Shown here piece after piece: positions 24,192-25,110 of a DNA stretch of 64,000 nucleotides. Each line of letters begins with the position of its first letter. Position 1 is the stretch's first letter. The notes under the pieces are model-generated. The model was not told the origin of the DNA. It saw nothing but the letters and a program-made list of their open reading frames with translations, and searched no databases. Position numbers and translations under genes: made by a program. Source of the stretch: Escherichia coli (lineage in GTDB: Bacteria > Pseudomonadota > Gammaproteobacteria > Enterobacterales > Enterobacteriaceae); the NCBI RefSeq assembly GCF_044324785.1, contig NZ_CP172127.1, one strand, 5' to 3'.

Positions 24192-25110
24192 GAATCTTGA
24201 CCTTTTTTGCTGTTATCGCCACTCCCTGCCGTGGAAGTCAGCTTAGAACAATGTACTCCCCCAGGACGGCGTTTTGAAGGTCTGCAGAATAAGATTTTGC
24301 CAGAGGGGAAGGCTTGATTGTGCTGCTAATAACTTAATAATGGCAAAATAATGAGGTGTATATGCTTAATAATTAATGTTATGTAGTGAATTATTCTGAT
24401 TCTTAATTGTGAGTGTGGTTTTTTTATCTGTAAGATAATTGTTTGAAAATGCCTCGTTTAAGAATTCACTAATGAATCGTGATGATGATATTTCCGCATT
24501 ACGGAGAGTTTAACAGCGTGATGATTTCCGAGGTGTCGTAATGGGTGCAAGGTGTGAAACTATTGTTAAGCGGGATTAATGAATGAGGATGATGCTAATT
24601 AATTATTATTTAATATTCAAAAAGGTTTTGTTGTGCTTATTAATAATAGAAGATTACTTTGCCTAACATAACATAACTTTGCATCAGATAATTCGCAATG
24701 ACCCTTATAAATAAAAGGTTTTTGGGGTAAAATGCTCGCATAAATGACGGATCCCTGCTCTTGATGCCGCCTCACCATTGCTGTTTGTACGTGTTCGCGT
24801 ATGACCAGCGATGCTGCACGAGAGTGGAACAAGGACTCACATTTACATTTATACAAACACGCGCATGTCATAAATACAAAAGAGTGAGTAACTTAATAGA
24901 TATGCGATTCCTGAAGATATATTCTGTGATCTACTTCAGGCATTATAACGGAACAATGTGAGTCGCTTTTTTAGTGCAACTCATATGCATTTTTACTTTC
25001 GTCCGGGTTCCGGATGAAACTGCCAGGGAGGCACATTACAAATGGAATTGCTTGTTTGTGTGTGCACAGCATTAACCAGCTCAGTATGAGCCGCCAGTAA
25101 GTGATAATAT

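Follow-up and report, generated by a model that had tools for sequence, protein, structure and literature searches.

The 919-bp spacer between the divergent genes alaA and lrhA of Escherichia coli is very probably a conserved composite control region and not a single element. It joins a long lrhA leader, regulated by CsrA and by Hfq-dependent small RNAs (sRNAs), to phased DNA upstream of the lrhA promoter. We studied this spacer within a stretch of 64,000 nucleotides from an E. coli genome. We call this stretch the window, and all positions refer to it (Table 1).

The finding is already known, because the leader (2023), the role of Hfq (2014), the role of CsrA (2017) and the input of Lrp (2018-19) have all been published. 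The literature shows the lrhA start site, binding of Hfq and CsrA, pairing with UhpU, repression by ArcZ and RprA, and targeting by Lrp. The published sRNA hub in the lrhA 5' UTR (Bilusic 2014, PMC4152368; Potts 2017, PMC5694010; Melamed 2023, PMC10578931) is the same locus, and its start, UTR length, UhpU site and CsrA peak map directly onto the window. Nothing essential differs from the published hub. What we add is a conservation profile across the family, a promoter footprint and the rigid spacing of the upstream DNA. According to the original prediction for this region, a long AT-rich leader may harbour several sites for regulators, a 5' UTR of unusual length or small RNAs. The 371-nt UTR and the published inputs from Hfq, CsrA, sRNAs and Lrp bear this out.

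A long and AT-rich spacer in the core genome

By the ORF list and the RefSeq annotation, alaA (minus strand) and lrhA (plus strand) are transcribed away from each other, and the spacer between them occupies 24192-25110. The spacer had been described as an unusually long AT-rich divergent region of about 920 bp, and this description holds. None of the other intergenic gaps in the window, about 60 in all with a median of about 55 bp, is as long; these figures are approximate, since record and window are not collinear towards the left end of the window. An apparent gap of 622 bp between dedD and cvpA, where record and window are not collinear, was discarded as an artefact. The second-longest gap lies between lrhA and nuoA (629 bp). 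The GC content of the spacer is 0.381 vs 0.516 for the whole window, and it falls to 0.318 in 24301-24700.

The spacer belongs to the core genome: 5425 of 5426 complete E. coli genomes contain a match to 24100-25200, with identities of 95-100%. In K-12 the spacer has the same length of 919 bp and carries no annotated feature. With LrhA as the query we recovered 80 loci from Enterobacteriaceae. The order alaA-lrhA is kept in 78 of them, with a gap of 764-1140 bp. Conservation of length is not special to this gap, because the neighbouring lrhA-nuoA gap is tighter still across the loci (IQR 627-631 bp). For the spacer alignment we combined the window with 41 other species (42 sequences); identities are given relative to the window.

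Table 1. Features of the alaA-lrhA spacer and its borders, in window coordinates.
Feature	Position	Strand	Basis or remark
alaA coding sequence (alanine transaminase)	22974-24191	-	ORF list and RefSeq; left boundary of the spacer
Predicted alaA 5' leader, ~52 nt, Shine-Dalgarno AAGG at ~24200-24204	24192-24243	-	start placed 7 nt downstream of the predicted -10
Hairpin or DNA dyad of the alaA leader, conserved	24218-24242	-	core CTTCCACGGCAGGRAG at 24222-24237; loop ACGGCA if RNA
Predicted alaA sigma-70 promoter	-35 TTCAAA 24278-24273; -10 TACATT 24255-24250	-	phylogenetic footprint; 17-bp GC-rich spacer
Block CAAAATCTTCTTCTGC ahead of the alaA -35, conserved	24284-24299	-	alignment
Central spacer, AT-rich (31-36% GC), fast-evolving	24300-24550	.	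GC profile, alignment
Distal conserved blocks	TGTGAA..TGTTAAG 24553-24570; TAATTAATTATTATTTAATATT 24596-24617	+	alignment, rigid spacing
Conserved motif TCAGATAATTCGCA, -56..-43 of P1	24684-24697	+	alignment
lrhA promoter P1, sigma-70, predicted hexamers	-35 TTATAA 24705-24710; -10 TAAAAT 24728-24733	+	17-bp spacer
lrhA 5' UTR, 371 nt, first base A24740	24740-25110	+	Melamed 2023 and primer match
Stem-loop of the original prediction, an ordinary hairpin specific to E. coli	24907-24937	+	folding, alignment
CsrA CLIP-seq peak	24995-25081	+	Potts 2017 peak_226, converted to the window
Hairpin UUUCGUCCGG-GUU-CCGGAUGAAA	24997-25019	+	-13.2 kcal/mol, z = -3.75; directly 5' of the CsrA and ArcZ sites
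Predicted ArcZ pairing site	25017-25033 (-94..-78)	+	duplex prediction with the ArcZ seed UUCCCUGGUG
Predicted RprA/McaS pairing site, shared seed	25059-25074 (-52..-37)	+	duplex prediction, conservation, published chimeras
UhpU pairing site, adjoining the ribosome-binding site	~25083-25099 (-28..-12)	+	lrhA-M1, duplex prediction, reporter data
lrhA coding sequence (LysR-type regulator)	25111-26049	+	ORF list and RefSeq; right boundary of the spacer

The start site of lrhA lies far upstream of its coding sequence

The lrhA 5' UTR is stated to be 371 nt long (Melamed 2023, eLife, PMC10578931). The primer of the +1 fusion in that study, SM079, carries ATAAATGACGGATCCCTGCT, which is identical to window 24740-24759, and because of this match we place the start site at A24740. 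Mapping of the lrhA transcript start had been proposed as a check on the length of the leader, and the published start gives a long one. The UTR fills about 40% of the spacer, on its right side. It differs from the K-12 UTR by four substitutions and no indel, and the match spans the fusion fragment.

The footprint upstream of this start looks like a sigma-70 promoter with a weak -35, which we call P1 (24705-24733). Its predicted -10 sits 7 nt upstream of the published start. Both CTTATAAAT and TAAGAT/TAAAAT are kept in all 41 other species of the alignment, and conservation drops sharply directly past the -10. When the UTR length is read from this footprint in each of the 42 sequences, 41 give 334-461 nt and a single outlier gives 587 nt. 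A gSELEX peak of RNA polymerase (RpoH and RpoE holoenzymes) has been located in the lrhA/yfbQ spacer. By our own coordinate conversion it lies near window 24740.

An older database entry places the lrhA start at K-12 position 2406819, which is window 24933 and serves as the UTR boundary in a table of Potts 2017 (PMC5694010). It would imply a UTR of 178 nt and, if real, a second promoter. Bilusic 2014 (PMC4152368) saw no start site at this older position. A scan with consensus promoter hexamers was of no use in this spacer: it returned three promoter-like sites vs 3.9 expected by chance and missed both conserved promoters. Its candidate on the alaA strand (24346-24317) is not conserved.

The end of the leader is a conserved binding platform

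A conservation profile had been named as a second check, and it divides the lrhA leader into two unequal parts. Conservation is confined to the final ~95-120 nt, and the first ~255 nt are free to change. Across the family, identity is 0.26-0.45 over 24742-25020 vs 0.55-0.80 over 25022-25110. Closer relatives give the same picture. E. albertii is 100% identical over 25016-25110 and 71% identical over 24741-25015. A divergent Escherichia lineage is likewise 100% identical over the end of the leader, and over 24741-25015 both relatives lie within 71-81%. The platform at the end of the leader is under purifying selection relative to the rest of the leader.

The published regulators of lrhA map to this platform. 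The lrhA 5' UTR forms RIL-seq chimeras with UhpU, ArcZ, RprA and McaS, and the leader is repressed by UhpU, ArcZ and RprA, with ArcZ acting on an lrhA-lacZ fusion (Melamed 2023, PMC10578931). The pairing with UhpU was validated by the compensatory mutations UhpU-M1 and lrhA-M1 in the same study. Using the gBlock sequence in its supplement we mapped lrhA-M1 to C25095G, at position -16 relative to the coding sequence, and this validated mutation fixes the UhpU site at ~25083-25099. For the other sRNAs we scanned the leader for duplexes in 18-nt windows. The best seed pairing falls at 25017-33, 25059-74 and 25083-99. A first duplex scan was too permissive owing to long interior loops and was replaced by this one. 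The exact positions that we give for ArcZ and RprA/McaS are duplex predictions. The sequence CACAGC inside the predicted RprA/McaS site hardly varies within the family: six genera have CATAGC and one has CACAGT.

CsrA and Hfq act on the same leader. A CsrA CLIP-seq peak (peak_226, K-12 2406671-2406757) lies in the lrhA 5' UTR, and both lrhA RNA and its ribosome footprints go up in a csrA mutant (Potts 2017 supplement, PMC5694010). Two GGA motifs within this peak, at 25027-25029 (CAGGGAGG) and at 25044-25046 (AUGGAAU), are 17 nt apart and conserved across genera. Leader fragments of 150 and 350 nt come down with Hfq in co-immunoprecipitation, and an hfq mutant accumulates the full-length lrhA transcript of 1.5 kb (Bilusic 2014, PMC4152368). 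With a start far upstream, validated complementarity to UhpU and predicted complementarity to ArcZ and RprA/McaS, the lrhA leader is a long hub for sRNAs, Hfq and CsrA.

The platform itself is mostly free of conserved structure. RNAalifold found no consensus pairs in the last 136 nt of the UTR across 34 species, hence no conserved inhibitory structure in the platform, and we replaced it by folding each sequence separately. The hairpin UUUCGUCCGG-GUU-CCGGAUGAAA lies at its upstream edge (Table 1). Most sequences from Escherichia, Citrobacter and Salmonella also have a hairpin at the equivalent place, of differing sequence (z = -1.9 to -3.9). A search of the literature found no report of Rho-dependent attenuation of lrhA.

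These observations can be put together in a model. RNA polymerase starts at A24740 from P1, and Lrp (known from ChIP-seq) and LrhA (from published autoregulation) would act on initiation from sites upstream. The last ~95-120 nt of the leader serve as a conserved, mostly unstructured platform. CsrA very probably binds its two GGA motifs. With Hfq, UhpU base-pairs with the platform (-28 to -12), and ArcZ (about -94 to -78) and RprA or McaS (about -52 to -37) are predicted to do so as well. Repression would probably work by occlusion of the ribosome-binding site. As an outcome, LrhA synthesis would go down and the mRNA would become less stable, which would relieve the repression of flhDC and feed into RpoS control. 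The length of the spacer is very probably set mainly by two parts, the 371-nt UTR and about 190 bp of phased regulatory DNA upstream of it.

Neither the predicted stem-loop nor a hidden gene is likely to explain the spacer

A different explanation starts from the extended stem-loop that the original prediction had singled out at 24907-24937. This stem-loop could be a functional element of the lrhA leader, either a determinant of processing or stability or a protein-binding hairpin. The structure does exist. The inverted repeat spans about 24907-24943 with the arms ATTCCTGAAG and CTTCAGGCAT; it appears in the minimum-free-energy fold of the whole UTR and is almost identical in the window, in K-12 and in the divergent Escherichia lineage. 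The Hfq-bound fragments of 150 and 350 nt imply that the leader is processed somewhere, and the older 5' end at 24933 falls within the 3' arm, where it might be a cleavage site or a stop of reverse transcriptase. Against a function stands first of all the ordinary stability of the fold: at -9 kcal/mol its z-score is -1.21, and 25 of 200 shuffled sequences are equally stable. Among the 46-nt windows that slide along the gap, 34 of 175 reach -9 kcal/mol (vs 23.6 +/- 7.7 in shuffles), and the hairpin is not among the 12 most stable. Neither is it conserved. Both arms are altered in E. albertii without compensation, and Citrobacter, Salmonella and more distant genera carry unrelated sequence at this position. 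The equivalent position shows no structural signal in the 42 sequences (mean z = -0.23), and the stem-loop has no Rfam match at E <= 1. Finally, neither the CsrA peak nor any sRNA site includes it: the distance to the peak downstream exceeds 55 nt, and the nearest predicted sRNA site begins about 80 nt further on. Thus the stem-loop is present as predicted, and it has neither the stability nor the conservation of a conserved structured cis-regulatory RNA. We consider a functional role in the lrhA leader very unlikely.

The gap could also be long because it hides an unannotated gene for a small protein, or an independent sRNA that has a promoter and a terminator to itself. The gap does contain several ORFs of 50-84 codons, Bilusic 2014 (PMC4152368) initially listed the Hfq-bound RNA as intergenic, and the authors of the Serratia study (PMC10810281) speculated on an sRNA in the distal region. 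The ORFs, which the original prediction had taken to be non-coding, give no sign of being genes: the four largest have no Pfam match, and stops or frameshifts break the gap ORFs in the divergent Escherichia lineage, E. albertii, Citrobacter and Salmonella. As for RNAs, when both strands of 23500-26800 were compared with Rfam at E <= 1, the only matches were two chance ones, both outside the gap, and a terminator scan found no terminator-like site within it. The Hfq-bound RNAs were shown to belong to the 1.5-kb lrhA transcript (Bilusic 2014, PMC4152368), and conservation in the distal part (24300-24550) is too low for a conserved sRNA. Adams 2021 mentions neither lrhA nor alaA. No unit with its own promoter, an intrinsic terminator and conservation as a whole was found in the gap. 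These results largely rule out a hidden gene or an independent sRNA, which we regard as extremely improbable.

The alaA side carries an almost invariant element

The best-conserved stretch of the gap is not in the lrhA leader; it lies next to alaA (24192-24300, identity 0.64-0.92). The footprint here suggests a sigma-70 promoter for alaA. Both of its hexamers vary little or not at all across 37 species, and the sequence between them is variable at a fixed length. This predicted promoter and the start site that goes with it would give alaA a leader of ~52 nt, whose identity across the 41 other species is 0.74-0.92. Upstream of the -35, the block CAAAATCTTCTTCTGC is conserved in most genera and missing from the group of Buttiauxella, Cedecea and Franconibacter.

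Within the predicted leader lies a 16-nt core, CTTCCACGGCAGGRAG, that is likewise constant or almost constant in 37 species. Two readings suit this element, a 5'-terminal RNA hairpin and a T-N11-A DNA dyad. Pairing is well kept, with 88% of cells paired vs at most 59% when the partners are slid against each other. The outer pairs show some covariation (AU 24, GC 6, GU 5), and there are 13 cells with a double change vs 6.2 expected (0 of 500 shuffles), but only three pairs vary on both sides. The data fit a dyad equally well. The E. coli outer stem contains mismatches, and the stability of the fold is unremarkable (z = -0.53). Because the alaA start site is deduced from conservation only, the element stays a putative hairpin as far as transcription is concerned. 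Each E. coli genome carries a single copy, which is at least 99% identical in 5417 of 5425 genomes. The element has no match in Rfam, and the gap holds no second copy of the dyad CTTCC-N6-GGAAG. The 14-mer CTTCCACGGCAGGA has at least 120 matches in metagenomes; among the matches listed none adjoins an alaA orthologue, and we attribute them to chance.

Phased DNA upstream of P1 and the variable centre

Conserved DNA on the lrhA side does not end at P1; blocks reach up to -190. Their spacing is rigid in the 42 sequences, with 33 bp between the two distal blocks and 141 +/- 1 bp to the -35. Closer to the promoter, the motif TCAGATAATTCGCA looks in several genera like an RcsB/RcsAB box, with a weak likeness in E. 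coli (9 of 14 positions). We treat this as a lead only, and we found no paper that links an RcsB box to lrhA. Lrp ChIP-seq, at the resolution of the whole regulatory region, identifies lrhA as a direct target that is activated by Lrp. The blocks at 24553-24617 may be sites for Lrp or for other architectural proteins.

Between the two conserved halves of the spacer lie ~250 bp of variable, AT-rich DNA. In this centre (24300-24550) the 41 other species show identities of 0.21-0.51, and values of 0.62 and 0.34 were obtained for E. albertii and Salmonella. Despite the low identity its length is constrained: the alaA -10 and the TGTTAAG block are a median of 313 bp apart (IQR 308-316).

Genetic data bear on the distal DNA. 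Transposon insertions in the spacer between alaA and the regulator gene raise the expression of lrhA in E. coli and of pigU in Serratia; the Serratia insertion lies 825 bp upstream of pigU, in a region that the authors describe as free of annotated features (PMC10810281). Full complementation of Pantoea lrhA requires ~921 bp of upstream DNA. The leader alone fails to explain the effect on pigU, because the insertion is so far from the UTR.

The length of the spacer might be set mainly at the level of the DNA. Nucleoid-associated proteins (H-NS, Lrp, Fis, IHF) would assemble into an extended or bridged complex; lrhA would be silenced by it and possibly coupled to alaA, and insertions that break the complex would de-repress lrhA. 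The low GC content of 24301-24700, the published binding of Lrp to the lrhA regulatory region, the rigid spacing of the upstream blocks, the constrained length of the variable centre and the Serratia and Pantoea genetics all fit such a complex. Then again, the lrhA-nuoA gap is even more constant in length, and outward transcription from the transposon could account for the overexpression. A DNA complex also leaves the 371-nt leader unaccounted for, so that it complements the UTR explanation rather than replacing it. We consider it possible, if somewhat unlikely, that the length is mainly set in this way.

The alaA-proximal half, which the lrhA leader leaves unexplained, could carry a new kind of cis-regulatory architecture. 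Here CTTCCACGGCAGGRAG, be it a fixed-loop RNA hairpin or a LysR-type T-N11-A operator, would form a long-range complex together with the phased blocks, which would couple the alaA and lrhA promoters and keep lrhA low. Such a complex, if real, would explain why an insertion ~825 bp upstream raises pigU in Serratia, as reportedly also happens in E. coli. We put this forward tentatively and think it unlikely. For the distal region, the data argue against a conserved sRNA and point to the alaA promoter/leader element and the phased upstream blocks as the candidates. The spacer as a whole remains best described as a composite of a regulated long leader and phased upstream DNA.

Relation to other leaders and meaning

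Among enterobacteria, rpoS (DsrA, RprA, ArcZ), flhDC and csgD also have long leaders on which several Hfq-dependent sRNAs act together. The lrhA leader shares with them a 5' UTR longer than 150 nt on the mRNA of a master regulator, several sRNAs that act on a conserved part of the leader, and dependence on Hfq. Input from CsrA, as in the lrhA leader, is known for flhDC as well. The direction of control differs from rpoS: RprA and ArcZ activate rpoS by opening an inhibitory hairpin, whereas the same sRNAs repress lrhA.

The spacers between alaA and hexA, pigU or rovM in other Enterobacterales are likewise divergent, separate alaA from a LysR-type regulator gene by ~0.9 kb, and respond to insertions with a rise of the regulator (shown for Serratia PigU, PMC10810281). 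We liken them to the alaA-lrhA spacer by arrangement; the 80 loci analysed here are all from Enterobacteriaceae.

LrhA stands near the top of the E. coli hierarchy that controls motility, fimbriae and RpoS, and its homologues govern virulence, antibiotic production and CRISPR-Cas in other Enterobacterales. The convergence of CsrA and at least three sRNAs on one leader provides the route by which flhDC receives signals of carbon status, envelope stress and oxygen as well as flagellar signals. Our conservation map singles out the ~100 nt of the leader that matter, and the stem-loop of the original prediction is not part of them. What the map leaves as a residue, namely the element next to alaA, the phased blocks ahead of P1 and the variable core rich in AT, bears on the genetics of Serratia and Pantoea.

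A conserved element in the predicted alaA leader

The best-conserved part of the whole alaA-lrhA gap is the invariant 16-nt element CTTCCACGGCAGGRAG (37 species). Each E. coli genome carries one copy. The arms on either side covary in part, and Rfam returned no match to the element. It may represent an RNA hairpin whose loop, ACGGCA, is fixed, or a T-N11-A dyad in the DNA.

Conserved features of the alaA-lrhA gap
Feature	Window coordinates	Strand	Position or spacing
16-nt element CTTCCACGGCAGGRAG with flanking arms	24218-24242	-	at predicted alaA leader start
Conserved blocks and lrhA promoter	24553-24733		near-fixed spacing, 42 sequences
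Conserved motif T[AC]AGAT[TA]ATTCG[TC]A	24684-24697		-56 to -43 of lrhA P1

Structures and reading frames in the lrhA leader

Of all local hairpins in the gap, the most stable (24772-24817, -19.2 kcal/mol) occupies +33 to +78 of the lrhA leader, in its unconserved portion. Further downstream, GACTCACATT (24834-43) and AATGTGAGTC (24955-64) form a perfect 10-bp inverted repeat. Its arms enclose 111 nt, including the stem-loop at 24907-24937 singled out in the original prediction. GCTTTTTT comes after the AATGTGAGTC arm. The whole feature (24834-24972) is a candidate long-range helix followed by a U-tract, in a poorly conserved region of the leader.

A -10-like sequence, TATATT or TATTCT (24918-24933), closely precedes the start site of lrhA in older annotation (24933), and many genera have a TATAT-like block at the same alignment position. 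This sequence might act as a second, weak promoter, or else as a processing site rich in A and U. The leader also holds a mini-ORF of six codons (ATG ACG GAT CCC TGC TCT TGA, 24744-24764), which starts 5 nt from the 5' end of the lrhA mRNA; a check outside Escherichia found no conservation of it.

The neighbouring gap and the public records

The lrhA-nuoA gap (26050-26678) is also long, at 629 bp and 39% GC. Its length varies less than that of the alaA-lrhA gap (IQR 627-631 bp in 72 Enterobacteriaceae loci). A CsrA CLIP peak at K-12 2405645-2405748, corresponding to window 26004-26107, extends across the stop codon of lrhA and the distal 5' region of nuoA (Potts 2017, PMC5694010).

Among the loci recovered with the LrhA query, L066 (CACSKA010000019.1) and L068 concern a contig labelled Chryseobacterium sp. 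18061. It bears a typical enterobacterial alaA-lrhA locus, with an LrhA that is 78% identical, and this locus is about the same as that of the companion Citrobacter sp. 18056 assembly. The public entry is probably contaminated or mislabelled. Over 24100-25200 the window is identical to its best match, NZ_AP022261.1. Around dedD-cvpA (window 1-1000) the two are not collinear, the dedD end lying at 730 in the window and at 367 by offset. Hence the window either derives from another strain or has an indel at that place.

Conserved blocks upstream of the lrhA promoter

The conserved motif upstream of P1 resembles an RcsB/RcsAB box: measured against the consensus of that box, it agrees at 12 of 14 positions in Salmonella and Kosakonia and at 9 of 14 in the window. 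A literature search found no paper tying such a box to lrhA.

Spacing is kept across the 42 sequences. Blocks are 33 bp apart in most of them, and the distance to the lrhA -35 has a median of 141 bp (IQR 140-142). The DNA between the blocks is variable despite this near-fixed spacing. Such an arrangement suggests that a helically phased, multi-site protein complex would assemble upstream of lrhA.
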